DNA of 43,103 bases, from UHGV virus genome UHGV-0195171. One strand, 5' to 3'. The notes under the pieces are model-generated. The model did not search any database. It was not told the origin of the DNA and saw only the letters and a list, made by a program, of their open reading frames with translations. Both the position numbers and the translations under genes were made by a program. Origin of the DNA: a virus. Shown here in pieces: positions 578 through 43,103 of the stretch (position 1 is the stretch's first letter; each line of letters starts with the position of its first letter).

Positions 578-606
578 TTGACCTATAATATACGCATAAC
601 TAATAT
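578..606 (+). promoter_or_regulatory. sigma70-type early-left promoter (pL-like)
   Basis: TTGACC (578-583), 17-nt spacer, TAATAT (601-606). A CGAATA-type operator-like half-site (551-561) lies just upstream. Confidence 0.5.
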
Positions 607-607
607 C

Positions 608-1036
608 ACACCCATCAACGACGCACTAACCACGCGGCAGTTGTTCAGAAACAGTTCTGACAGCCCGGAAAGACGGGCACGAATTCTTCGGGTCGCCGAA
701 AGTACGATGGCATGCGGGAAAGACTGCAACCGGCGTATGGCACATGCGTCGAAGCGGTCCGGGGGCTCCTTGGTACATGGCCCAGCGGGTAGCCGGAATG
801 TGCAAGCCAGGTGTCCAGGCACGACAGGCGATTCACCATCGTGGCGGTACGGTGTGACTCCCGGGAAGAGTCCGGGATACAACATGAGAGCGCACTTCAT
901 TTTTATCAGTTATGGCGATGTTGTTAAATCAAAAGGGCGGAGTGCGCTCCCAGTTGTAAAGAATCACGTAGCCAGCGTGGTACCAGAGAAAATTGCTGTA
1001 TGTAGTCTTGGCCCGGGCGCCCCGGGCATTTTTTTA
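608..1036 (+). ncRNA. GC-rich structured leader or candidate noncoding RNA; identity unknown
   Basis: About 430 nt, visibly more GC-rich than its flanks, starting at the pL-like promoter and ending at a strong terminator. Contains several short perfect hairpins (663-678 GCCCG-GAAAGA-CGGGC; 860-876 CCCGG-GAAGAGT-CCGGG). The only long ORF (578-1045) starts with TTG inside the -35 box and has an R/G/S/P-rich composition typical of noncoding GC-rich DNA. Confidence 0.3.
1011..1035 (+). terminator. rho-independent terminator (tL1-like)
   Basis: gcccggg-cgc-cccgggc hairpin followed by attttttt. Confidence 0.6.
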
Positions 1037-1099
1037 ACACAGTGACGGTTTTACCGTTGTGCCTGAGTCCCCGAACGGAGAGGCCAAACCCGCAACGTG

Positions 1100-1345
1100 A
1101 CACCAGGGAAAGACCGGAGGAAGTACAACGCCTGACCAGCGTCAACCTGAGCATGACCAGCTCTGGCACCGGGGAAGACCGGAAAAGGAAAGACCAATGG
1201 GCCTAACCAGCCTGACAGCCGGGAAAGACCGGCACCCTTTAGATGGCAAAAGGCCCGCACAAGGCGGGCCAGTTACCCCGGGCGGCGACCAAACCACCCA
1301 GATTCCGTAGGGGACCAACCCTACGGAGAGGAAAGACCAATGCCG
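1100..1345 (+). repeat. cluster of GGAAAGACC-type motifs in small hairpins within the early-left leader
   Basis: GGGAAAGACC 1106-1115; CCGG-GGAAGA-CCGG 1169-1182; AGGAAAGACCAATG 1186-1199; GCCGG-GAAAGA-CCGGC 1218-1233; GAGAGGAAAGACCAATG 1326-1342. Two further 7-bp-stem hairpins at 1252-1270 and 1305-1326. About 10 GGA triplets fall within 245 nt. Confidence 0.6.
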
Positions 1346-1394
1346 ACAGAATCAACACTGATCGGCTCTGAGTATACATCAACAAGGAGTCGCT

Positions 1395-1725: not shown

Positions 1726-1971
1726 ATGACAAATAACCCATTCATCGAAAAAATAATCGATGCTGGCTTATCAGCATTTGAGCACGAAAATAATAGCGAC
1801 TTTGGTTCAGGGACGACGCATATCACCATTATCGGCGGTGTTCGTCGTGTCGAGTTCTACCCAACCACCGGTACAGTTTACGCTAATGCTGAAAAGGGAA
1901 AATTCCCGACATTTCTACAGAAAAAAGCCGGGATTAAAGTTGCTATCCGTCTAGCTAAATCTGGCGCCTGA
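1726..1971 (+). CDS. hypothetical early protein (81 aa)
   Basis: ATG at 1726 preceded by a GAGG SD. It starts 8 nt after the previous stop. The ORF-track entry 1573-1971 is the same frame with a later start. Confidence 0.55.
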   Translation: MTNNPFIEKIIDAGLSAFEHENNSDFGSGTTHITIIGGVRRVEFYPTTGTVYANAEKGKFPTFLQKKAGIKVAIRLAKSGA

Positions 1972-2000
1972 CCTGCGCCTGCAACAAAGAGGAAAGACCA

Positions 2001-4130
2001 ATGACCATATACAACGGCTTATTTGAGCCCAAGAAATCGGCAATCAAAGACTGCGGTGCCGTGCAGCTGGCGATCGCCGTCGAAGCACCGAACAAGAAAG
2101 TCGCTGAAAGCATTATGACCGGAAAACTCTGGGAGTCTTACCCGGCGAACGGAGACAACTATTTCAAACCTAAGCTGTGGGAACACATTGAAGGCCAGCC
2201 ACTGCCGGCAGTCGGCCAGTTCGATGAACATTTCGCCCAGGAAAATACCTTTGATGGTGAAAAATGGGTGGCTAACAGCCAGGATGACGGCGCCACCGAG
2301 TTGCCGGCAGGCGATGAAGTTATCGATCTGATGACGGTATCCCCCAGGGAGCGTTTTGCTGCTGTATTACTCTTCAGCAAATTAGAGATAAACGGCCAGC
2401 TCTATTCGCAGGTTGTAGATTATCTTGATGATCTGGATAACCACAACGAATCCATAGAAGAGGATGACCGTTTTAATTTCAATGTGCTTTGCGCCCTGCA
2501 CAATAACGAACCAGTGAAACATATGCACGTGGAAGGTCTGAACAATCTGATCCATGGCATCTTCTCCCATTTTGAAAACCAGATGCCGGGTAAAGCGGCT
2601 ATTTCTCAATTTGTAAAACGCTGGCTTGAAAATCCCGGTAAACGCGAAGAAATGGTACCAGGCCAAAATTATGCCCCCAGCACTGATAACAACGTTAAAA
2701 TCGCGCCAAAGCGTGGTTATAAACATACCTACGCAACACTGGATCAGGAGATCGCTGTTGCGCTGCTCCCTATCTCTCCCGACGCGCCAGTATTATCAGG
2801 CAACCTTCGCGACGCGGAGAAAATCATTGCAGACGATCGTGAGGATTTTAAACGTTGGTCTGCATCACTGCATGTCACACCGAACATACTCAAATATGAC
2901 CGTGCCAGCATTTTCGGCGTAGTGCAGAACGTTCCGGCGAAAGATACTTACCATTTTCCGGAAAGTCTGCGCCGCCATATTACTTCATGGCTTGAAGCTA
3001 ACGGCCGCTTTGAAGAAGACGAAGGCTCATCACAAAAACAACCGACAGCGGAGCAAAATACCGCCTCAAACGTGGTCAAAAAAGAGGAAGTGCCGCCGCC
3101 GGTTGTAACCGATACCCAGGCCAAACAGGCGCGTGAGACGCTCAACGATATGGGCTATGGCGTATATGCCTCTGGTGAAGGAGCAGAGCCAGAAGAGAAG
3201 TTGAGTGAAAAAGTAAAAACTATCGTTCAGGACGTTGATCAGCTTGTTGAACGAATTAACCGAGAAGAGAACCTGCCGAAAGCTTCCGAAGTCGTCCAGA
3301 GCATTAACGAAATGCAGGAAACAGAACGTGACAATCTGGAACTATGGAAACGAGTTTTCAAAACTGATGAACGGTTTACTAAAGCCTTTACGCAGAACGG
3401 CGGCGGCACCTCGATCAATGGCACGTACCTAACGATGTTAGCAACACGTGAGTTTGGCTTGAAAGGGAGCGGCTGGGGCGTCGATATTCTGGAAGAACGC
3501 TTTGATGATGGCGCACCAATTACACGTACAGTAAAAGGAGCTGACGGTAATAATACATGGGAACTGATCCCTGATGGTAATGGTGGCTTCCTAACTGAAA
3601 AACACCATGTGATAAAAATTAGGCTGTGGTACCTGGTAAACGGTGTTCGTGGTGAAGAATACGCCTACGGATGTACCCCTTACATTTACGGCAGTAAATA
3701 CGGCCCTATCTGCGACGGCGAAGCTACTAAAAAATCACTAACTGACGCCACCAAAAAGGCATTATCCGGCCTCGGATTCAGCGGCGATATATTTATGGGG
3801 CTTTACGACAATCTGGAGTACCGCCAAAAGAACAAGGCCGAATTTGATCTTAAGAACGCCAGCGAAACCGCCGAAGATGCAGCGCGGTTGCGTCAGGAGT
3901 TCGATGACAAACTAACCCGCGTCGCCAATACACTAGCACATGGCGTAACAGTGAACGAAATAAACGGTGTGTTCTCCCCTATCGCACGTGAAATCGATGT
4001 TCACATTAAGGCCGCACAGGCCAACGGCGACAAGCAACATGAACGCTATCTTTCTGGTCGCCTGCGCCGCCTGATTGCCATTAAAGATGGTCGTCTCAAA
4101 GAACTGAATAAAGCCGAGGAGAAAGCATAA
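2001..4130 (+). CDS. Rad52/Sak/Erf-superfamily single-strand annealing protein with a roughly 440-aa N-terminal extension
   Basis: The C-terminal third carries the Rad52-like annealing signature (…YAYGCTPYIYGSKYG…EATKKSLTDATKKALSGLGFSGDIFMGLYDN…). Preceded by GAGGAAAGACCAATG. Located upstream of the gp157-like gene, as in phage recombination modules. Confidence 0.6.
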   Translation: MTIYNGLFEPKKSAIKDCGAVQLAIAVEAPNKKVAESIMTGKLWESYPANGDNYFKPKLWEHIEGQPLPAVGQFDEHFAQENTFDGEKWVANSQDDGATELPAGDEVIDLMTVSPRERFAAVLLFSKLEINGQLYSQVVDYLDDLDNHNESIEEDDRFNFNVLCALHNNEPVKHMHVEGLNNLIHGIFSHFENQMPGKAAISQFVKRWLENPGKREEMVPGQNYAPSTDNNVKIAPKRGYKHTYATLDQEIAVALLPISPDAPVLSGNLRDAEKIIADDREDFKRWSASLHVTPNILKYDRASIFGVVQNVPAKDTYHFPESLRRHITSWLEANGRFEEDEGSSQKQPTAEQNTASNVVKKEEVPPPVVTDTQAKQARETLNDMGYGVYASGEGAEPEEKLSEKVKTIVQDVDQLVERINREENLPKASEVVQSINEMQETERDNLELWKRVFKTDERFTKAFTQNGGGTSINGTYLTMLATREFGLKGSGWGVDILEERFDDGAPITRTVKGADGNNTWELIPDGNGGFLTEKHHVIKIRLWYLVNGVRGEEYAYGCTPYIYGSKYGPICDGEATKKSLTDATKKALSGLGFSGDIFMGLYDNLEYRQKNKAEFDLKNASETAEDAARLRQEFDDKLTRVANTLAHGVTVNEINGVFSPIAREIDVHIKAAQANGDKQHERYLSGRLRRLIAIKDGRLKELNKAEEKA

Positions 4131-4697: not shown

Positions 4698-4883
4698 ATG
4701 CTGAGACTATCTCTGAAAAAAGGTGATGCAGTTCATATCGTGTTACCGGATGGGACTAACGCAATTATCGAAGCGCTGGCCCGGTGTGAACTCGGTATGC
4801 ACTTCCCCCGCAATATCAAGATAACGCGTGAGGATGGTGCATTCCAACCGAAACAAAACCTGATTAAGCATAATCAGAAATAG
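4698..4883 (+). CDS. CsrA/RsmA-like small RNA-binding protein (carbon storage regulator family homolog)
   Basis: 61 aa from the ATG at 4698 (stop/start overlap TGAtATG). The N-terminus is MLRLSLKKGDAVHIV versus CsrA MLILTRRVGETLMIG. The core is LGMHFPRNIKITRED versus CsrA IGVNAPKEVSVHREE, including the conserved Arg at the position equivalent to CsrA R44. Confidence 0.5.
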   Translation: MLRLSLKKGDAVHIVLPDGTNAIIEALARCELGMHFPRNIKITREDGAFQPKQNLIKHNQK

Positions 4884-4932
4884 CCCATCACTACCGCTAG
4901 CATTGTGGTCTACCAATAAACCGGAGATCACA

Positions 4933-5127
4933 ATGCTACGTTGGCAACCAGGTGTAGTTTTACTTTCTGAATTCGATATCAAAATTGGCAGGCTATCAGC
5001 CAGCGTTAGAAAAAGGACTCTGACCCAGTCCGATATCCATATCGCTTGTGATACAGCTGACAACGCAATAGCCCGGCTTATGAGGAAAGACCATGACCAG
5101 AGAAAACGATCTCCTGACCGACGATGA
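4933..5127 (+). CDS. hypothetical small protein
   Basis: 64-aa ORF from the ATG at 4933 with a GGAGA SD. It overlaps the start of the next gene by 35 nt, so it is uncertain. Confidence 0.3.
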   Translation: MLRWQPGVVLLSEFDIKIGRLSASVRKRTLTQSDIHIACDTADNAIARLMRKDHDQRKRSPDRR

Positions 5128-5317
5128 ACTGATAGAATTGACCGGATACCGATTTCCTTCTAAGCAGTGCTCGGCTTTAGCTAAATCCGGTATTTCGTTT
5201 GTTAAACGTCGGGACGGCCGGCCTCGCGTGACATGGACACATGTGAATGCAGCGCTATTCGGAGACAGAAAAATAGTTGCTGACGAAGAAGAAAAACCAA
5301 ACTTTGATGCTATTTAA
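5093..5317 (+). CDS. DUF4224-type excisionase-like protein (putative Xis)
   Basis: 74 aa with LTDDELIELTGYRFPSKQCSALAKSGISFVKR…, directly upstream of int. Preceded by GAGGAAAGACCATG. Confidence 0.55.
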   Translation: MTRENDLLTDDELIELTGYRFPSKQCSALAKSGISFVKRRDGRPRVTWTHVNAALFGDRKIVADEEEKPNFDAI

Positions 5318-5320
5318 ATT

Positions 5321-6349
5321 ATGGGAAGAAAAAGAAAAAACCAGGAGGATAACAAACTTCCTCCCCGCGTTTATTCAAATAAGTACAGTTACTATTACAA
5401 ACCAACCTCAAAAGAATGCATCACAATTGGCCCCGTATCAATGCCCTTGTCTCAGTTATGGGCAAGATATGAGGCATTAATTGACGAACAGGCCAACGTA
5501 ATGACATTCAGTAAATTATGGGGGTTATTTCTTAAGAGTGCCTATTATCTTGAATTGAAACCAAGGACGCAGAAAGATTATCTGCAACACCAGAAAAAGC
5601 TACTTGCTGTATTTGGGAAGATTACGGCAGATAAAATTAAAACTGAAGATATCAGGATGTTTATGGATAGGCGAGGCTTGCAAAGTAAAACGCAGGCAAA
5701 TCATGAAATGAGTAGCATGTCTCGTGTTTTCAGATGGGGTTTTGAGCGGGGTATGGTTAAAGGGAATCCTTGCCAGGGCGTCAGTAAATTTAAAGCTGTC
5801 GCCCGCGGAAGGTACATTACCGACGCGGAATATGAGGCTATCTATAATGAGGCGGATGATGTCGTTCGTACAGCAATGGAAATTGCCTATCTTTGCGCTG
5901 CCCGCCTGGCTGATGTACTCGGCATGCAGTGGCGACAGGTAACGCCGGAAGGAATCTTCATTCAGCAGGGTAAAAACAATGTTAGCCAGATCAAGCAGTG
6001 GACAGACCGGCTTAAACAGGCTTTCGAACTCGCAAAAACATTCTCTAATTCCGGCAATCCAGGAGCATTCGTCCTGATGGGCTCACATGGTAGCGGGTTC
6101 AGTAAAAGAGGATTCAGCCACCGATGGGAGGAGGCAAGGCATAAAGCTTCTGTAAAACTGGGGTACGTTCTCGACTGTACGTTCCACGATCTGAAGGCGA
6201 AAGGTATCTCTGATTACGAAGGAAGCAGCCGGGATAAACAACTGTTCAGCGGACATAAAACAGAAAGCCAGGTTCTGATTTATGATCGTAAAACGAAGGT
6301 GTCACCCACTCTCGACAAGCCGCCAATTGAGACTAAAAATTCTAAGTGA
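5321..6349 (+). CDS. int: tyrosine integrase, lambda Int family
   Basis: 342 aa. Lambda-Int-like N-terminal arm-binding region (LPPRVYSNKYSYYYKP…). Catalytic-domain motifs …AARLADVLGMQWRQV…, …HDLKAKG…, and SGHKTESQVLIYDRK with the catalytic Tyr. It is transcribed toward the attP core. Confidence 0.85.
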   Translation: MGRKRKNQEDNKLPPRVYSNKYSYYYKPTSKECITIGPVSMPLSQLWARYEALIDEQANVMTFSKLWGLFLKSAYYLELKPRTQKDYLQHQKKLLAVFGKITADKIKTEDIRMFMDRRGLQSKTQANHEMSSMSRVFRWGFERGMVKGNPCQGVSKFKAVARGRYITDAEYEAIYNEADDVVRTAMEIAYLCAARLADVLGMQWRQVTPEGIFIQQGKNNVSQIKQWTDRLKQAFELAKTFSNSGNPGAFVLMGSHGSGFSKRGFSHRWEEARHKASVKLGYVLDCTFHDLKAKGISDYEGSSRDKQLFSGHKTESQVLIYDRKTKVSPTLDKPPIETKNSK

Positions 6350-22013: not shown

Positions 22014-22385
22014 TTACGCTTCCTCTGGTTTTGTTTCAGTAAGCATAGTTGCGCCCATGTAATTTAATGAGCCGGGGGCTGCCCCATGTTCCTGCTGGAG
22101 CAGAGAATTACGTGTAGCAAGAAAATCCTTTGTCGCTTCTTCTGCTACCGGCGCGGTGGCTAGCAGTTTTTCCAAATCTTCCTGCTGCGCCTTCATTTCT
22201 TTCTGCTTTTCAATGCCCGCGTAGACATCCTTTAACGCTATATCAAGCAGGCTACGCACCAGTTCGGGGATAGACGGCGCAGCGCCGTAAGGAGAACGCG
22301 CCCGCTCTTCACTCTGGATAATTTCCAGTGCTTCGCGTTGTGCGTAGGTTAAAAGGATCGGTTTGGTTTTGGTCAGCTGATTCAT
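22014..22385 (-). CDS. hypothetical virion-module protein (123 aa)
   Basis: ORF with an AGGAGGAAAGACCATG initiation region. Its SD lies inside a perfect 11-bp hairpin. Confidence 0.55.
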   Translation of the reverse strand: MNQLTKTKPILLTYAQREALEIIQSEERARSPYGAAPSIPELVRSLLDIALKDVYAGIEKQKEMKAQQEDLEKLLATAPVAEEATKDFLATRNSLLQQEHGAAPGSLNYMGATMLTETKPEEA

Positions 22386-22388
22386 GGT

Positions 22389-22419
22389 CTTTCCTCCTGT
22401 TTGGGTTTCAGGAGGAAAG
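22389..22419 (-). promoter_or_regulatory. SD-sequestering hairpin upstream of the 123-aa gene
   Basis: The minus-strand mRNA reads CTTTCCTCCTG-aaacccaaa-CAGGAGGAAAG-acc-ATG: a perfect 11-bp inverted repeat whose 3' arm is the SD. Confidence 0.5.
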
Positions 22420-22496
22420 TACGTTGGGCGCTATTTACTGGGCAAATTTATTTCGTTTGGCTTTGGCTTGCGTGCTCAACTGGGCGAAACAGGTTG

Positions 22497-33786: not shown

Positions 33787-34071
33787 TTAGCAGTCTGCAT
33801 CAGGGCGGGAGACTGCACGGCATGCCCACATACAGGCTTCCTGCATTTTGGTGCGCGCGATAGCCATGCAGCGCAAAGCTTCTGCTCTCTCGGTTTCGGC
33901 CTGACTACCACGCTCGACAACTTCAGCCGTTGCAACCTCTCGCTCTGTATCGAGCAGACTGCAAAAATGCCGGCTGACACCTTTGAGACGATTCATACGC
34001 TCAATGTCACCCGTGGTTAATGTGCGGTAGCCCTTTACGGTGCTGCCGTCCTGCGGTTTAGCTTCGCTCAT
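33787..34071 (-). CDS. hypothetical protein (94 aa)
   Basis: ORF with an AGAGGA SD. Preferred over the overlapping alternative 33705-33980 on composition and RBS. Confidence 0.5.
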   Translation of the reverse strand: MSEAKPQDGSTVKGYRTLTTGDIERMNRLKGVSRHFCSLLDTEREVATAEVVERGSQAETERAEALRCMAIARTKMQEACMWACRAVSRPDADC

Positions 34072-37922: not shown

Positions 37923-38719
37923 TGAGCCTCCCCAAGCACCCAGCGCAGTGCTTCAGCGTATTCACCGCTGGCACCTTCGAGGGCTTTTGTGATTTCTTTA
38001 CGGGTTTTCAGACGTGGTTTTGCTTCACCAAGAACCTGGCGCTGCCGACGGGCTTTTTCGTGGCCAGTTGTGCCAGCTGTCGCCTGCTCGATTTCCGCTA
38101 CCTTTTCCCGCTGTTCTTCGGGTTTCAGTGACGCCAGTTGACGCGCCTGAGTAACCGTCACTGTGCCGGACTCTACAGCGTCTTTGACTGCCTGGGTGGC
38201 ATCCAGCAGGGATAGCGTTGCGCGTACTGTCTGGACACTCACGCCAAACATCAGCGCTAAATCGTCCTCGTCGTGCCCGCGCTCCAGCGCATCAGCCATT
38301 TTCTTTGCCCGGCCCAGCGGTGTATCTGCCTGGCGGATTTCGTTAGCACTTACCATCGCCTGCGCCATGCGAACGGCGGAGCCACGTTTAGTGACTGCCG
38401 GAACCAGTAACGGCTCTTTGCCCTCTTTGGACAGACGCTTGTTGGCTTCCAGTGTATGGCGCACGCGCTGACGACCATCCACCACACAGGCCAGCCCGCT
38501 TTCGGGGTCTTTCCAGACGATAATCGGCTCAAGAACGCCCTGGTCCATGATGTTCAGCACCATTGCCTCGCTGATAGGCAGGTGGATACGCTCATCGTAA
38601 AGCGTGTGCGTTTTGTCGGTAACCAGATGCAGCTTTTCCGGTTCGAACATCAGAACGTTGGTTTTTCCGCTGGCGCCATACGCGTCGATCGAGTTTTTAG
38701 CCATTTTTTTGAACTCCAA
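37919..38719 (-). CDS. ParB-like nuclease domain protein
   Basis: 266 aa. The N-terminal ParB/sulfiredoxin-type region (…EPIIVWKDPESGLACVVDGRQRV…) commonly precedes phage adenine methyltransferases. Confidence 0.55.
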   Translation of the reverse strand: MEFKKMAKNSIDAYGASGKTNVLMFEPEKLHLVTDKTHTLYDERIHLPISEAMVLNIMDQGVLEPIIVWKDPESGLACVVDGRQRVRHTLEANKRLSKEGKEPLLVPAVTKRGSAVRMAQAMVSANEIRQADTPLGRAKKMADALERGHDEDDLALMFGVSVQTVRATLSLLDATQAVKDAVESGTVTVTQARQLASLKPEEQREKVAEIEQATAGTTGHEKARRQRQVLGEAKPRLKTRKEITKALEGASGEYAEALRWVLGEAQ

Positions 38720-38980: not shown

Positions 38981-39631
38981 TCATGCCCTCGTTTTTTCTG
39001 AGTTGGCGTAATAGCGGGGATCCACGCTGGTCAGTGTGAAATGCGGCACTGGCATGTCGTCATGCCGAATAATTCCGACGTGATTCGATGCGAGCATTGT
39101 CGAGATACGTTTTTGCAGATCACGTAAGGTGATCTCAGCATCAGGATGATGTTTTTTGATGGCTGAAAGAATGTTCTGATACGACAGTGTTTTACCCTTC
39201 ATCAGCGCAACCAGCTGCTGGGCGGAAACTTCATCGATGGTGCTATTCAGGGGTTTAATACTCTCCAGCAGCAGGCGATGCCGGCCAATGCTGCCGACAC
39301 GCTGGCCAGTTTTTTTATCAAAATGCTCATTTGGTCCAGCAGACCAGACGGTAGCACCCTCGCTGAGCCGTACAGTTTTTTCACCCTTGTAATAAATCAC
39401 GGTGCCGACATGTGTTTTACGACGGCGGCTAGATACAGCGGGCGCAGCAGTTTCACGTTTTACCGGTTTTTTCGGGGTGAGCCCCGGAACTGGTACTGGC
39501 CGCGGGGCAGCGACGAACACAGAACGGCTACGCGCACGGGCGCCGGCGTTCATGCGCCACAGAATTACGGGGATCCAGTTACAGCCATCGTCTGGATTAA
39601 CTGGTTTTGGGTAATTTAAATTCGTGGTCAT
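38981..39631 (-). CDS. hypothetical protein (216 aa)
   Basis: ORF preceded by CCGAGGAAAGACCTATG. Confidence 0.5.
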   Translation of the reverse strand: MTTNLNYPKPVNPDDGCNWIPVILWRMNAGARARSRSVFVAAPRPVPVPGLTPKKPVKRETAAPAVSSRRRKTHVGTVIYYKGEKTVRLSEGATVWSAGPNEHFDKKTGQRVGSIGRHRLLLESIKPLNSTIDEVSAQQLVALMKGKTLSYQNILSAIKKHHPDAEITLRDLQKRISTMLASNHVGIIRHDDMPVPHFTLTSVDPRYYANSEKTRA

Positions 39632-39669
39632 AGGTCTTTCCTCGGTTATATTGCGCTGGTCAGGCGCAG

Positions 39670-42040: not shown

Positions 42041-42262
42041 TCAGATCCCCAGCGTATCGGCCAGCTGGCGGCAAGCTATTTCATATTCTTTCTGGGTCAG
42101 ACCTAATTCCTGCAGTTCTGCCTTCCGCAGCTCGTAGCGTTCCCAGATCGTCAGCGCAGCAGCACGACGCTCCTCGAAAATCGATTCGATATCTTCCATC
42201 GGGACTTGCACCCCATTCCGGCGAAACCCGTTCCGCCAGGTGATGCGATCTTGTGTTCTCAT
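42041..42262 (-). CDS. hypothetical early protein (73 aa)
   Basis: ORF preceded by CCGAGGAAAGACCAATG. Confidence 0.5.
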   Translation of the reverse strand: MRTQDRITWRNGFRRNGVQVPMEDIESIFEERRAAALTIWERYELRKAELQELGLTQKEYEIACRQLADTLGI

Positions 42263-42282
42263 TGGTCTTTCCTCGGCACAGG

Positions 42283-42729
42283 TTAAACGCTGGTCAGGCG
42301 CTGTGTTTCTCTCATCGCTTGCAATGCCTTTGCAACTTGCTGCGGGCCGTCTCTGGCTTCGAGCAATAACGCGATAATGGCCGCCGCAAACTCGCGTATG
42401 GCGACACAGATCAAATACTGGGTTGACATGTCCAGCCGCGCGTAACGTTCCGCCGGCAGCGCTGCTTCCATCGCTTTGGCCAGGGCCATAGTTTTGGTTC
42501 TGGCCGCTTTAGTTTCTCCACGCAGCCAGCGAAAAATCTGCTGGCGGTTGTTGTTGATGGCCCGCCAGTCTGCTTTTCCATCTGCATCTTCAATCTGGTG
42601 CAGTTTCAGCACGCCGGTGTTACCACCGAGACGAAACCACATACGGCTTATCTCGATGGCAACCAGCTCCTGCCCACTTTCTGCCGCCCAGCTGAATATC
42701 TCTCGCTTCAGTTCCTCGATGTTTTCCAC
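42283..42729 (-). CDS. YdaT-like protein (Rac prophage toxin/regulator family; occupies the cII position)
   Basis: 148 aa, GTG start with an AGGAGA SD. …WAAESGQELVAIEISRMWFRLGG…DW…QQIFRWLRGE… matches the E. coli YdaT pattern as recalled. Directly downstream of the Cro-like gene, as ydaS-ydaT are in Rac. Confidence 0.45.
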   Translation of the reverse strand: MENIEELKREIFSWAAESGQELVAIEISRMWFRLGGNTGVLKLHQIEDADGKADWRAINNNRQQIFRWLRGETKAARTKTMALAKAMEAALPAERYARLDMSTQYLICVAIREFAAAIIALLLEARDGPQQVAKALQAMRETQRLTSV

Positions 42730-42789: not shown

Positions 42790-43023
42790 TTAAGCTGCGT
42801 TCTGTTCGGGGATGCCATCGGTAGGTTTCCGATAAATGTTTGGTAGCAGGTCATGTGGTGTTACCTGATACCCGGTGGCCGCAGCCCATTTCAAGGCCGT
42901 TGCAGCCCCAAGCAGGCATTTACCAGAGGCGACACGACTTACATACCCCTGTGATTCACCGACCAATTGAGCAAAGTCCTGCTGGCGCACGCCAGAGGTC
43001 TTCAGATAGTTTTTGAGATCCAT
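42790..43023 (-). CDS. Cro-like HTH regulator
   Basis: 77 aa from the ATG at 43023 (MDLKNYLKTSGVRQQDFAQLVGESQGYVSRVASGK…) with a GAGGAAG SD. First gene of the minus-strand early operon. Confidence 0.6.
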   Translation of the reverse strand: MDLKNYLKTSGVRQQDFAQLVGESQGYVSRVASGKCLLGAATALKWAAATGYQVTPHDLLPNIYRKPTDGIPEQNAA

Positions 43024-43103
43024 ATGTCTTCCTCGGTATATGTGACACATGAATATTAGTATCACGAATACAAAAGTGTCAATAGCTACACGATTGGGAG
43101 TAA
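43024..43103. promoter_or_regulatory. immunity-switch intergenic region with CGAATA-type operator-like half-sites (continues at 1-18 if the sequence is circular)
   Basis: TCACGAATACA at 43062-43072, TTGCGAATAAT at 8-18, and the reverse-complement TTACGAATATT at 551-561 next to the pL-like promoter. Confidence 0.3.

Follow-up and report, generated by a model that had tools for sequence, protein, structure and literature searches.

A short sequence repeated in front of genes of the temperate phage UHGV-0195171 is, in our reading, the target site of an antisense small RNA (sRNA) encoded by the same phage, which would act on several ribosome-binding sites (RBSs) as an anti-RBS regulon; we give this reading a probability of roughly 55%. 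The support comes from sequence comparison, which yields a -10 element, a terminator, covarying structure assigned to one strand, complementarity to the motif, and a concerted switch of RNA seed and targets. From these we infer that the RNA is made in this phage, acts in trans and represses, and that target copies in a leader serve as decoys. The window analyzed here is the whole 43,103-nt stretch of DNA.

The motif at gene starts

The initial annotation had described a recurrent 15-nt initiation motif at eight or more gene starts on both strands. Its recurrence is real: the exact string GAGGAAAGACCWATG occurs four times, at 1328-1342(+), 1989-2003(+), 39629-39643(-) and 42260-42274(-), with 0.00 copies expected from shuffles. 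The core GGAAAGACC occurs ten times in the window compared to 0.33 expected, and all ten copies lie in the sense of local transcription, so the genome-wide count confirms an excess over composition, far beyond chance. The number of genes proved smaller than claimed, as only five starts that carry the motif are credible. These are listed here with their upstream hairpins and a variant start:

1963-1979 (+): class A hairpin ggcgc-CUGACCU-gcgcc, 9 nt upstream of the 1989 motif
1989-2003 (+): motif GAGGAAAGACCAATG, start of the 709-aa gene 2001-4130
5015-5031 (+): hairpin ggacu-CUGACCC-agucc, ~50 nt upstream of the next motif
5082-5095 (+): motif GAGGAAAGACC-ATG (core at 5084-5092), start of the DUF4224 (xis-like) gene 5093-5317
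22383-22396 (-): motif GAGGAAAGACC-ATG (core at 22386-22394), start of the 123-aa gene 22014-22385
39629-39643 (-): motif GAGGAAAGACCTATG, start of the 216-aa gene 38981-39631
39652-39668 (-): class A hairpin ugcgc-CUGACCA-gcgca, 8 nt upstream of the preceding motif
42260-42274 (-): motif GAGGAAAGACCAATG, start of the 73-aa gene 42041-42262
42286-42302 (-): class A hairpin agcgc-CUGACCA-gcguu, 11 nt upstream of the preceding motif
43021-43037 (-): cro start with GAGGAAGACATATG, two core bases missing

The tenth core copy, at 38506-38514, lies within a ParB-like ORF. Homologues of the 709-aa gene in E. coli prophages carry the RefSeq label 'exonuclease family protein', and its motif copy gives the strongest predicted trans duplex with the RNA seed described below. 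The 73-aa gene follows the gene for YdaT, a CII analogue, while the 216-aa gene follows that for the DnaB helicase. The 123-aa gene is an insertion in the virion module that is absent in phage BUCT709, and the Shine-Dalgarno (SD) half of its motif can pair with CUUUCCUCCUG 9 nt upstream. The cro start, previously listed as a variant of the motif, scores like ordinary SD sites; its resemblance is weak and it is probably not a regulon member.

The stems of the upstream hairpins vary much more than their loops. We counted 52 different 5-bp stems, with the loop CUGACCA in 111 of 177 hairpins, and the stem at 39652-39668 covaries with cacgc/gcgug in E. coli prophage L002. Two of the hairpins overlap coding sequence: the UGA in the 1963-1979 loop is the stop codon of the gene at 1726-1971, and the 42286-42302 hairpin lies inside the 3' end of the YdaT gene.

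To define the conserved unit we used 11 relatives, picked via a protein and not via the motif. They contain 76 core copies compared to 1.6 expected, 75 of them sense-oriented, with 41 at gene starts and 33 in the PL leader. The gap between GACC and the start codon was 0, 1, 2, 3 or 4 nt in 8, 13, 1, 12 and 7 cases, respectively, and the SD half of the motif also varied (GAGG, TAGG, AAGG). Because the gap varies, the start codon, previously counted as part of the 15-nt motif, is outside it; the conserved unit is GGAAAGACC(A), with the start codon 0-4 nt downstream. The core is unchanged across phages whose proteins have diverged to ~41% identity, and in a second group of phages it is replaced as a block by GGCAAGACC. 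This invariance and block switch support the earlier view that ordinary ribosome binding does not explain the conserved spacer, and with it the general idea of a sequence-specific trans-acting regulator, 'protein or RNA', of a phage regulon. Literature searches with the motif or its complement as a search string matched only unrelated primers.

A candidate antisense RNA opposite the PL leader

The two non-coding copies lie near the beginning of the window, in a long leader with the following features:

578-606 (+): PL-like promoter TTGACC-17-TAATAT
578-1037 (+): this promoter and the first ~420 nt of the PL leader, ending in a strong terminator (1011-1037)
663-678, 713-728, 1169-1182 and 1218-1233 (+): class B hairpins, loop GAAAGA
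1104-1117 (+): imperfect class B hairpin
1128-1142, 1149-1163 and 1198-1214 (+): three class A hairpins, loops CUGACCA, AUGACCA and CUAACCA
1185-1199 (+): second non-coding leader copy of the motif, AAGGAAAGACCAATG
1328-1342 (+): non-coding leader copy of the motif, whose complement is the antisense RNA seed UUGGUCUUUCCUC
1371-1376 (-): -10 element of the sRNA, TATACT
~1366-1246 (-): predicted ~120-nt IsrB-like antisense sRNA, ends inferred
1278-1327 (-): hairpins P2 (1278-1301) and P3 (1306-1327), loops complementary to GACCAA and UGACCA
1248-1270 (-): intrinsic terminator GGCCCGC-CUUGU-GCGGGCC followed by UUUU

Both leader copies had been taken for gene starts, of a 37-aa (1197-1310) and a 47-aa (1340-1483) mini-ORF. 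In 37 distinct homologues GGAAAGACCA is invariant at the leader, while the ATG after it is changed to ACG, deleted or frame-shifted. Since neither frame nor start codon is conserved, we rejected the mini-ORFs as leader peptides and regard the copies at 1185 and 1328 as non-coding. The mini-ORFs, like gp08 of Pectobacterium phage ZF40, are annotation artefacts of an RNA locus. The 1185-1199 copy adjoins class A and class B hairpins and is downstream of the predicted 3' end of the sRNA (~1246), and hence outside the stretch transcribed into it. The class B hairpins contain the motif 9-mer in UHGV-0195171 but stay GGGAAAGAC in the phages with the alternative motif (C-type, below). As they show no type switch there, we rejected them as part of the same code; they are probably an element separate from it.

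From 5' to 3', the predicted sRNA consists of a 5' hairpin, the seed UUGGUCUUUCCUC, P3 (loop UUGGUC), P2 (loop UUUGGUCG), GGGGUAA and the terminator. The template of the seed is the leader copy at 1328-1340. A CU-rich anti-SD stretch, UCUUUCCUC, predicted to be single-stranded, is extended 5' by UUGGUC, which is displayed again in two hairpin loops, and contiguous complementarity between the sRNA and the target RBSs amounts to 11-16 nt. At both loci checked for orientation, those of the window and of ZF40, the sRNA is antisense to the PL operon.

Among 55 distinct loci, the -10 element is TATACT in 40, TATAAT in 14 and TATAAA in 1, and in one group of relatives it takes the form TGnTATAAT. The -35 element of the window is poor (TTCCAT, 18-nt spacer), and a promoter scan of the window did not flag the sRNA promoter. 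The terminator is followed by a U-run of 4-7 nt in 55 of 55 distinct loci and its stem covaries. This evidence comes from direct inspection, because RNAalifold on a first alignment mis-registered the terminator and the covariance-model alignment did likewise (helix 4 67% paired).

A covariance model built for the locus matches 1241-1371(-) at 147.8 bits and gives one full-length match per locus in 93 loci. Paired cells make up 88.7% of the sRNA alignment compared to 73.1% in shuffles, and the covariation score is 0.509 compared to 0.212 in shuffles (reached by 0 of 500) and 0.06-0.14 in slid controls. Compensatory changes were found at 8 of 8 pairs in P2 and 8 of 8 in P3; the alignment behind these covariation counts was fitted to the covariance model. 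The two covarying hairpins fold well on the minus strand only, and the non-Watson-Crick positions of the sRNA stems are far more commonly G.U on the minus strand (A.C on the plus strand) than the reverse. The target upstream hairpins have the opposite bias, with 51 G.U and 14 A.C in the mRNA sense. The predicted fold of the sRNA has an energy of -65 kcal/mol. Within the seed, the UUUCC part is predicted to be unpaired with a probability of 0.97, while the prediction places the GGUC part within a stem of the 5' hairpin (probability of being unpaired 0.008), which leaves only ~9 nt of the seed freely accessible. With a -10 element of its own, a terminator and a conserved structure, the locus has, at the sequence level, the attributes of a small-RNA gene. 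A likeness of the P3 stem CCGUAGGGGA to 16S helix 45 was dismissed as coincidence, the stem being wholly replaced in relatives.

Specificity types and candidate readers

A second lineage, which includes ZF40, has GGCAAGACC at its gene starts and an RNA with GGUCUUGCC, located in ZF40 inside the mis-annotated gp08. At 54 loci with the seed GGUCUUUCC, the gene-start cores are A-type in 183 cases and C-type in 1, and at 39 loci with the seed GGUCUUGCC they are C-type in 136, A-type in 0 and T-type in 2. RNA type and gene-start type thus agree in 93 of 93 loci. The locus-retrieving searches left the seed unspecified, and most loci were retrieved by a pattern that included the gene-start motif, so only the seed side of this comparison is free of ascertainment. 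Our covariance model links A-type and C-type RNAs at 57-153 bits. We also looked for lineages of G or T type, but all matches were chance ones in coding sequence or tandem repeats. The related leader is present in ~8% of complete E. coli genomes (454 of 5,426), and the system also occurs in Klebsiella, Raoultella, Serratia, Yersinia, Pectobacterium, Providencia and Proteus. The A/C difference, which involves a single base of the RNA and its partner at 4-10 sites per genome, is a natural specificity switch that is already present.

We propose that this RNA reads the motif. Five early or accessory mRNAs, those of the 709-aa exonuclease-like, DUF4224/xis-like, 73-aa (behind YdaT), 216-aa (behind DnaB) and inserted 123-aa genes, carry its exact complement, GAGGAAAGACCA(A), across the RBS. 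In most cases there is also a small hairpin 8-11 nt upstream of the site, with the loop CUGACCA, complementary to the sRNA loops. First contact may be made through the loops, with pairing then spreading across the SD and excluding the ribosome, and in this way the sRNA would hold the target genes off together. The copies of the target elements in the PL leader could serve as a decoy once PL fires.

A broader proposal, which we consider less likely than not, is that this IsrB-relative sRNA controls early genes throughout a widespread family of temperate phages of Enterobacterales as a 'second immunity'. A fixed 9-13-nt code would lie in the RBSs of recombination, excision and replication-associated genes of both early operons, and leader decoys would titrate the sRNA once PL fires, making induction switch-like. 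The code has at least two types, A and C, which exclude each other, so a prophage could also shut down the early genes of any same-type phage that enters or shares its cell, irrespective of repressor immunity.

Seed and targets would also be expected to agree if the leader copy were one more site of a co-evolving protein, or if recombination homogenized the copies. The initial annotation, which allowed for a protein or an RNA, had pointed to a CsrA-like protein encoded in the same genome, probably the following:

4698-4883 (+): gene for a 61-aa protein

Under this explanation, the motif (GAGGAAAGACCAA in RNA) would be recognized by an RNA-binding protein of the phage (the 61-aa candidate or some other early product) that controls translation of the regulon. 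The antisense RNA would be only a local cis regulator of the PL leader, and the GGA-rich leader hairpins a CsrB-like sponge. GGA is the core of CsrA sites, and the likeness to a CsrA/CsrB system extends to a GGA site overlapping the SD, a leader with several GGA hairpins (four or five have GGA at the loop edge) and a small all-beta protein encoded nearby. In addition, phages of either motif type keep the 61-aa gene in the PL operon, and in C-type phages the gene itself bears the motif. Switching of type across the genome would also follow from a co-evolving protein. However, membership in the CsrA family was not established. The 61-aa protein matches Pfam CsrA PF02599 at 17.2 bits (E = 0.005), below the cut-off of 27 bits, and only 6 of 24 family members match at all (best E = 0.002). 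A search of solved structures with a profile of the family did not retrieve CsrA, hhalign with a small CsrA alignment gave a probability of 0.5%, and a fold search with the protein did not establish membership either. In the window, tblastn with E. coli CsrA found no homologue, and the best six-frame match of a small home-made CsrA HMM (E = 1.3) was an ORF covering 4698-4883. C-type sites have GGC instead of GGA, so GGA is not present in every site, and the GAAAGA-loop hairpins keep their type in C-type phages. The two subfamilies of the protein disagree with motif type in 9 of 99 loci compared to 0 of 93 for the RNA seed. A protein reader would also leave the two invariant UUGGUC loops, on hairpins that fold on the minus strand only, without a reason. 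We therefore consider this explanation unlikely, and the RNA a better candidate regulator than the 61-aa protein.

Recombination belongs to a different account, without any trans factor, in which an efficient RBS cassette (SD, A-rich spacer and standby hairpin) is inherited with the early module, short-homology recombination at gene boundaries keeps its copies uniform, and the overlap with the RNA is an accident of position. The motif genes do occupy mostly the same four positions of one conserved module, and the gene after DnaB varies while the unit before it stays, as expected for a module junction. The phage encodes recombination functions of its own, and mosaic lambdoid phages have short conserved boundary sequences. 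Even so, the 9-mer is invariant while stems, SD bases, start spacing and proteins (41% identity) have drifted, and half of the copies are away from gene starts. There are two mutually exclusive types, with the seed matching in 93 of 93 loci, and homogenization of one base over 5-10 sites with ~13 nt of homology is unlikely without selection. Nor is a pairing partner for AAGACCA known at the 3' end of host 16S rRNA. Presumably GAGG alone pairs there, the possible partners of GACCAA lying inside helix 45, and extended pairing of the spacer was rejected. Together, these points make a cassette without a reader rather unlikely. A far more improbable explanation is that hairpins and linear motif form nut-like sites for processive antitermination from PL and PR. 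A strong terminator does lie within the PL leader (1011-1037), the GAAAGA-loop hairpins resemble boxB of lambda, whose loops are GAAAA/GAAGA, and boxB of P22 and phi21 is similar to the CUGACCA and CUAACCA loops. Yet among the early products we found neither an arginine-rich protein like N nor boxA, and in place of one nut site per operon before the first terminator there are many units per operon, each tied to an RBS 0-4 nt before a start codon. The class A units are downstream of the leader terminator, not before it, and the minus-strand RNA would be left unexplained.

Relation to described systems

The closest described phenomenon to the motif is the start-associated sequences (SAS) of Cluster K mycobacteriophages, described in 2011 (PMC3203893) and surveyed in 188 genomes (PMC12699233). 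Both are asymmetric conserved strings of ~13 nt with an SD core, a few bases before start codons, and both occur in one orientation and almost only at non-structural genes of several unrelated families. Placement here follows that of SAS, with the 22383-22396 copy in the virion module as the exception. Conserved positions without pairing potential to 16S rRNA and subcluster-specific variants are further shared traits. The sequences differ, GGGATAGGAGCCC for SAS compared to GGAAAGACCA here, as do the host phyla, and the SAS consensus is not matched within two mismatches by the present motif, GAGGAAAGACCA. About half of SAS sites have an upstream inverted repeat (ESAS), and the SAS authors considered both an RNA and a protein as reader (PMC3203893, PMC12699233). 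ESAS have conserved 17-bp imperfect inverted-repeat arms with a variable spacer, whereas the hairpins here have variable 4-5-bp arms and a conserved 7-nt loop; the two are analogous in position only. Phage start-associated motifs have thus been known since 2011 without a mechanism. Unlike SAS, the present motif comes with a candidate reader that can be named, an antisense RNA that has the exact complement and co-varies with the sites.

The candidate RNA itself resembles IsrB, an antisense RNA of 88/94 nt detected in the Salmonella prophages Gifsy-1 and Gifsy-2 (Rfam RF01386; PMC2330248). In Salmonella, the only host for which the transcript and such an association are known, IsrB is associated with ProQ, and a role in lysogeny maintenance has been suggested (PMC5391140); we found no published function or target in the accessible literature. 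Both RNAs are antisense and occupy the same place, flanked by the immunity region on one side and by the exonuclease gene of the leftward early operon on the other, and both have a P2 hairpin with the loop UUUGGUCGG and a U-tailed, rho-independent terminator. The RNA of the window is longer (~120 nt) and has in addition a 5' hairpin, the seed UUGGUCUUUCCUC and another hairpin with UUGGUC. Against the Rfam isrB model, 1248-1320(-) of the window scores 13.5 bits (E = 3.5), below the gathering score of 35, while a C-type relative (L141, 9526-9607(-)) reaches 38.4 bits. Because the window scores so low but our own model links both groups, we regard its RNA as a distant IsrB relative and not a member by the Rfam criterion. 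In Gifsy-2, IsrB lacks the seed and early gene starts lack the motif. This joint absence supports the sRNA reading, but the missing seed also weakens it, since the ancestral role of the family may be purely cis-antisense. If the sRNA reading is true, it would provide a function for IsrB-type prophage RNAs, detected in Salmonella in 2008.

Phage antisense repressor RNAs are represented by P22 sar, P1/P7 c4 and lambda OOP (PMC12197685). Like these, the proposed sRNA would be a small phage RNA that pairs around an RBS and has complementary sequences in loops, and the P1 and P7 versions of c4 have different specificities (heteroimmunity), as do the A and C types here. While sar, c4 and OOP control one gene or operon (ant, cII), the proposed sRNA would address at least five dispersed RBSs in both early operons as well as decoy-like copies in a leader. 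If true, a phage sRNA would here govern a regulon of several genes of its own phage, and the control of lysis and lysogeny, possibly also prophage cross-immunity, would gain an RNA layer. As would be expected of a sar- or c4-type RNA, complementarity to RBSs of unlinked targets has been maintained in evolution, with seed type matching target type in 93 of 93 loci.

Recurrent motif at early gene starts

The window comprises the complete genome of a temperate phage, in circularly permuted form. Behind the PL leader, the genes run in the order 107-aa, 81-aa, 709-aa, Gp157, 61-aa, DUF4224 (xis-like) and integrase, and RefSeq names the E. coli prophage homologues of the 709-aa gene 'exonuclease family'. 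On the minus strand, running down from 43023, are cro, YdaT (the CII-analogue), 73-aa, the replication initiator, DnaB, 216-aa and others, then the late genes. Of 5,426 complete E. coli genomes, 454 contain diverged versions of this early module. The nearest deposited genomes are the 'Stenotrophomonas' phages BUCT708/709 (92-95% identity). The host in the label of OM816835, 'Stenotrophomonas phage vB_SmeS_BUCT709', looks doubtful, because its relatives and the early module all come from Enterobacterales (Klebsiella/Raoultella group).

Features of the early region
19-483, plus: cI-like gene, divergent from the cro-like gene across the window ends
42790-43023, minus: cro-like gene, divergent from the cI-like gene across the window ends
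from ~578, plus: PL (leftward early) operon
578-606, plus: promoter-like site of PL, TTGACC-17-TAATAT
following the 578-606 site, plus: non-coding PL leader of ~780 nt
1011-1037, plus: strong terminator inside the PL leader
663-678, 713-728, 1169-1182, 1218-1233, plus: class B hairpins, with conserved loop GAAAGA and covarying GC stems
1376-1371, minus: -10 hexamer TATACT of the predicted antisense RNA

The initial annotation reported a recurrent motif at eight or more gene starts. The motif is real and far exceeds expectation, although its details need correction. Four exact copies of GAGGAAAGACCWATG occur in the window (0.00 expected), with a fifth at one mismatch, and the core GGAAAGACC occurs 10 times (0.33 expected), always oriented with local transcription. 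Credible genes follow five of the copies (starts 2001, 5093, 22385, 39631 and 42262), and predicted pairing with the motif complement sets these starts apart from all 45 others; the cro start, which had been listed as a variant, is a poor match. The copies at 1185 and 1328 lie within the PL leader. The 37-aa and 47-aa 'mini-ORFs' assigned to them are not conserved, their ATG being changed to ACG, deleted or frame-shifted among 37 distinct homologues, in which GGAAAGACCA is invariant. Nor does the start codon belong to the conserved string: in relatives it lies 0-4 nt beyond GACC, and the leading bases of the SD differ (GAGG, TAGG, AAGG). What is conserved is thus GGAAAGACC(A), whose 5' half doubles as the SD, rather than an 'SD-spacer-ATG' string.

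A composite pattern that fixes the gene-start unit (CCTGACCAG, 10-22 nt, GAGGAAAGACC) matched >120 viral contigs, and 124 sequences totalling 1.28 Mb contain 687 copies of the core where ~10 would be expected. To avoid selecting on the motif, relatives were also fetched through the 107-aa protein, which yielded 11 prophages of Raoultella, Enterobacter, Citrobacter, Serratia, Rosenbergiella and Escherichia whittamii (protein identity 41-85%). All 11 contain the identical core. Together they have 76 copies, with 1.6 expected; 41 lie at gene starts and 33 in the PL leader, and 75 of the 76 are in sense orientation. The motif sits mainly at four module positions (the gene after DnaB, the exonuclease gene, 73-aa after YdaT, and DUF4224), with a few others.

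Many copies are preceded, typically by 5-13 nt, by a small hairpin with a conserved loop and a variable stem: the loop reads CUGACCA in 111 of 177 cases, whereas 52 different 5-bp stems were found. At non-Watson-Crick stem positions, read in the mRNA sense, G.U (51 times) outnumbers A.C (14 times), and these target hairpins therefore fold in the mRNA. The CUGA that begins the loop would fit the YUNR U-turn motif of antisense-RNA recognition loops.

Three further loci in the window deserve mention. The GGAAAGACC copy at 38506-38514 (minus), within codons W-K-D of a ParB-like gene and kept in BUCT709 and a few relatives, is probably coincidental, since it has no GA prefix and no start codon behind it. 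The motif-bearing 123-aa gene (region 22014-22420, minus) is inserted between two virion genes and absent from BUCT709; its product has no Pfam match, and its SD could be masked by pairing within an 11-nt inverted repeat (CUUUCCUCCUG ... CAGGAGGAAAG). The 94-aa protein encoded at 33787-34071 (minus) is likely an anti-CBASS/Thoeris sponge, judging by its Acb2/Tad1 hairpin domain (PF24729, E = 5e-16); the start site of its gene carries a motif form short by one base, GAGGAAAACCAATG.

A predicted antisense RNA opposite the PL leader

Positions 1240-1380 are highly conserved non-coding DNA. Across 55 distinct loci the minus-strand -10 hexamer is TATACT (40), TATAAT (14) or TATAAA (1), and one group has a perfect extended -10, TGATATAAT. 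It is followed by a 5' hairpin, UUGGUCUUUCCUC, a UUGGUC-loop hairpin, a UUUGGUCG/A-loop hairpin, GGGGUAA and a GC-rich terminator with 4-7 U. UUGGUCUUUCCUC is invariant, and the UUGGUC loop is present in 82 of 94 sequences. Stem mismatches that read A.C on the plus strand and G.U on the minus strand are many times commoner than the reverse (in hairpin P2 alone, 49 G.U cells versus 1 A.C, summed from the pair table), and this wobble-pair asymmetry settles the strand as minus.

A covariance model built from 22 sequences of the A-type, one of two lineages differing in gene-start core and matching RNA seed, gave exactly one full-length match per locus in 93 loci; the window's lies at 1241-1371 (minus, 147.8 bits). 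In an alignment of 76 distinct rows, which was fitted to the model and hence favours structure, 88.7% of cells were paired versus 73.1% in shuffles, and the covariation score was 0.509 versus 0.212 in shuffles (0 of 500 reached it) and 0.06-0.14 with slid partners. Both sides changed in 8/8 pairs of hairpin P3 and 8/8 of P2, and an independent MAFFT/RNAalifold run returned the same two helices. The predicted fold has -65 kcal/mol and leaves the seed UUUCC unpaired (predicted probability 0.97), with the adjoining GGUC predicted to pair in the 5' hairpin. GAUCAG at the 5' end can pair with seed UUGGUC (99.8% of cells paired in the 76-row alignment) and could mask part of the seed. A 22-nt block at 1360-1381 (plus), CTGATCGGCTCTGAGTATACAT, holds the -10 and the first transcribed bases and is near-invariant across relatives.

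That the seed complements the leader copy at 1328 follows by construction, and the seed is also complementary to the five gene-start copies over 11-16 contiguous bases. The loops UUGGUC and UGGUCG/A are complementary to GACCAA of the motif and UGACCA of the target-hairpin loops, such that conserved loops of opposite-strand hairpins at unlinked places match one another. Invariant loops would be superfluous for a purely cis-acting antisense RNA. From such comparative sequence evidence, we infer that the RNA probably reads the motif.

Matched changes in seed and motif

The early module is shared by Pectobacterium phage ZF40, which has GAGGCAAGACC at seven gene starts and GGAAAGACC nowhere in its genome. 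More than 40 further viral contigs are of this C-type: each has 3-10 copies, and A-type copies are essentially confined to class B hairpins. They contain a homologous RNA locus (57-87 bits with the A-type model) whose seed is GGUCUUGCC. Among all loci with a model match, the 54 with seed GGUCUUUCC have 183 A-type gene-start cores and 1 C-type, and the 39 with GGUCUUGCC have 136 C-type, 0 A-type and 2 T-type; a regex-based count agrees. Because the retrieval patterns fixed the gene-start unit and not the seed, the seed-side agreement could have failed and so counts as a genuine test. Searches for G- or T-type lineages gave chance hits only. In ZF40 (NC_019522), the 5' part of gp08 (4919-5407, GTG start) overlies the RNA locus (model match 5229-5369, opposite strand). 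Gp08 appears mis-called; the ATG near 5230 (MKAPEITITLYIH...) is probably the start of the real gene, a homologue of the first PL gene (107-aa).

Alternative readers and known systems

The proposal of a sequence-specific regulator acting on a phage regulon is supported in RNA form, but not with the CsrA-like protein originally suggested, probably the 61-aa product of 4698-4883. By eye, this protein aligns without gaps to CsrA at M1, L2, L4, G9, G33, P37, R44 and E45. Its Pfam CsrA score is below the cut-off (E = 0.005; 17.2 bits versus 27), and only 6 of 24 relatives match. A family profile search against solved structures found a Rib-type repeat, not CsrA, and hhalign against three CsrA sequences gave a probability of 0.5%. 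Whatever its fold, its two subfamilies each occur with both motif types (9 of 99 loci are discordant), and GGA is missing from C-type sites. As a reader of the motif this protein is not the leading candidate; it may still bind some RNA here, such as the GAAAGA-loop hairpins.

These class B hairpins, often preceded by CUGACAG, share GGAAAGACC with the start motif in the window phage and keep GGGAAAGAC in C-type phages, and their loop resembles lambda boxB. A nut-like role for motif and hairpins is nevertheless unlikely given the many units per operon, their coupling to start codons, and the absence of an N-like protein among the early products. The idea that the motif is an efficient cassette kept uniform by recombination is weakened by a 9-mer that stays invariant while everything around it drifts, by the non-genic position of half the copies, by the mutual exclusion of the two types, and by a seed that always matches.

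The antisense RNA has a relative in IsrB. A C-type RNA reaches the Rfam isrB gathering score (38.4 bits versus 35), and because the window's RNA scores only 13.5 bits, we regard it as a distant, extended relative. In Salmonella, Gifsy-1 and Gifsy-2 each encode an IsrB RNA; the two are identical (88/94 nt), antisense to their neighbours and adjoining the exonuclease gene sbcA, with mapped 5' ends, a terminator and strong induction by starvation (PMC2330248). Lysogens express IsrB from the prophage (PMC7067206). We found no published target in the literature. Gifsy-2 IsrB keeps the P2 hairpin and terminator but lacks the GGUCUUNCC seed, and no Gifsy-2 early gene start has the motif, a third state consistent with the RNA-motif link. 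The closest known phenomenon is the start-associated sequences of Cluster K mycobacteriophages, which have almost every descriptive feature in common with the window motif. Several Cluster K genomes contain a single opposite-orientation copy (PMC3203893), which, speculatively, may mark an RNA gene.

The PL leader also contains an RprA-like element at 918-1037 (plus), matching Rfam RF00034 over the full model length at 39.2 bits, where the gathering score is 70. The 3' half of the element nearly equals the RprA consensus (AAUUGCUGUaUGUAGUCUUgGCCCGGG...) and finishes with the strong 1011-1037 terminator. The Citrobacter prophage L129 scores 47.1 bits, and the core ATTGCTGTGTGTAGTCTT recurs in Raoultella and Serratia relatives. 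The element may be a mimic, carried by the prophage, of the sRNA that activates rpoS.
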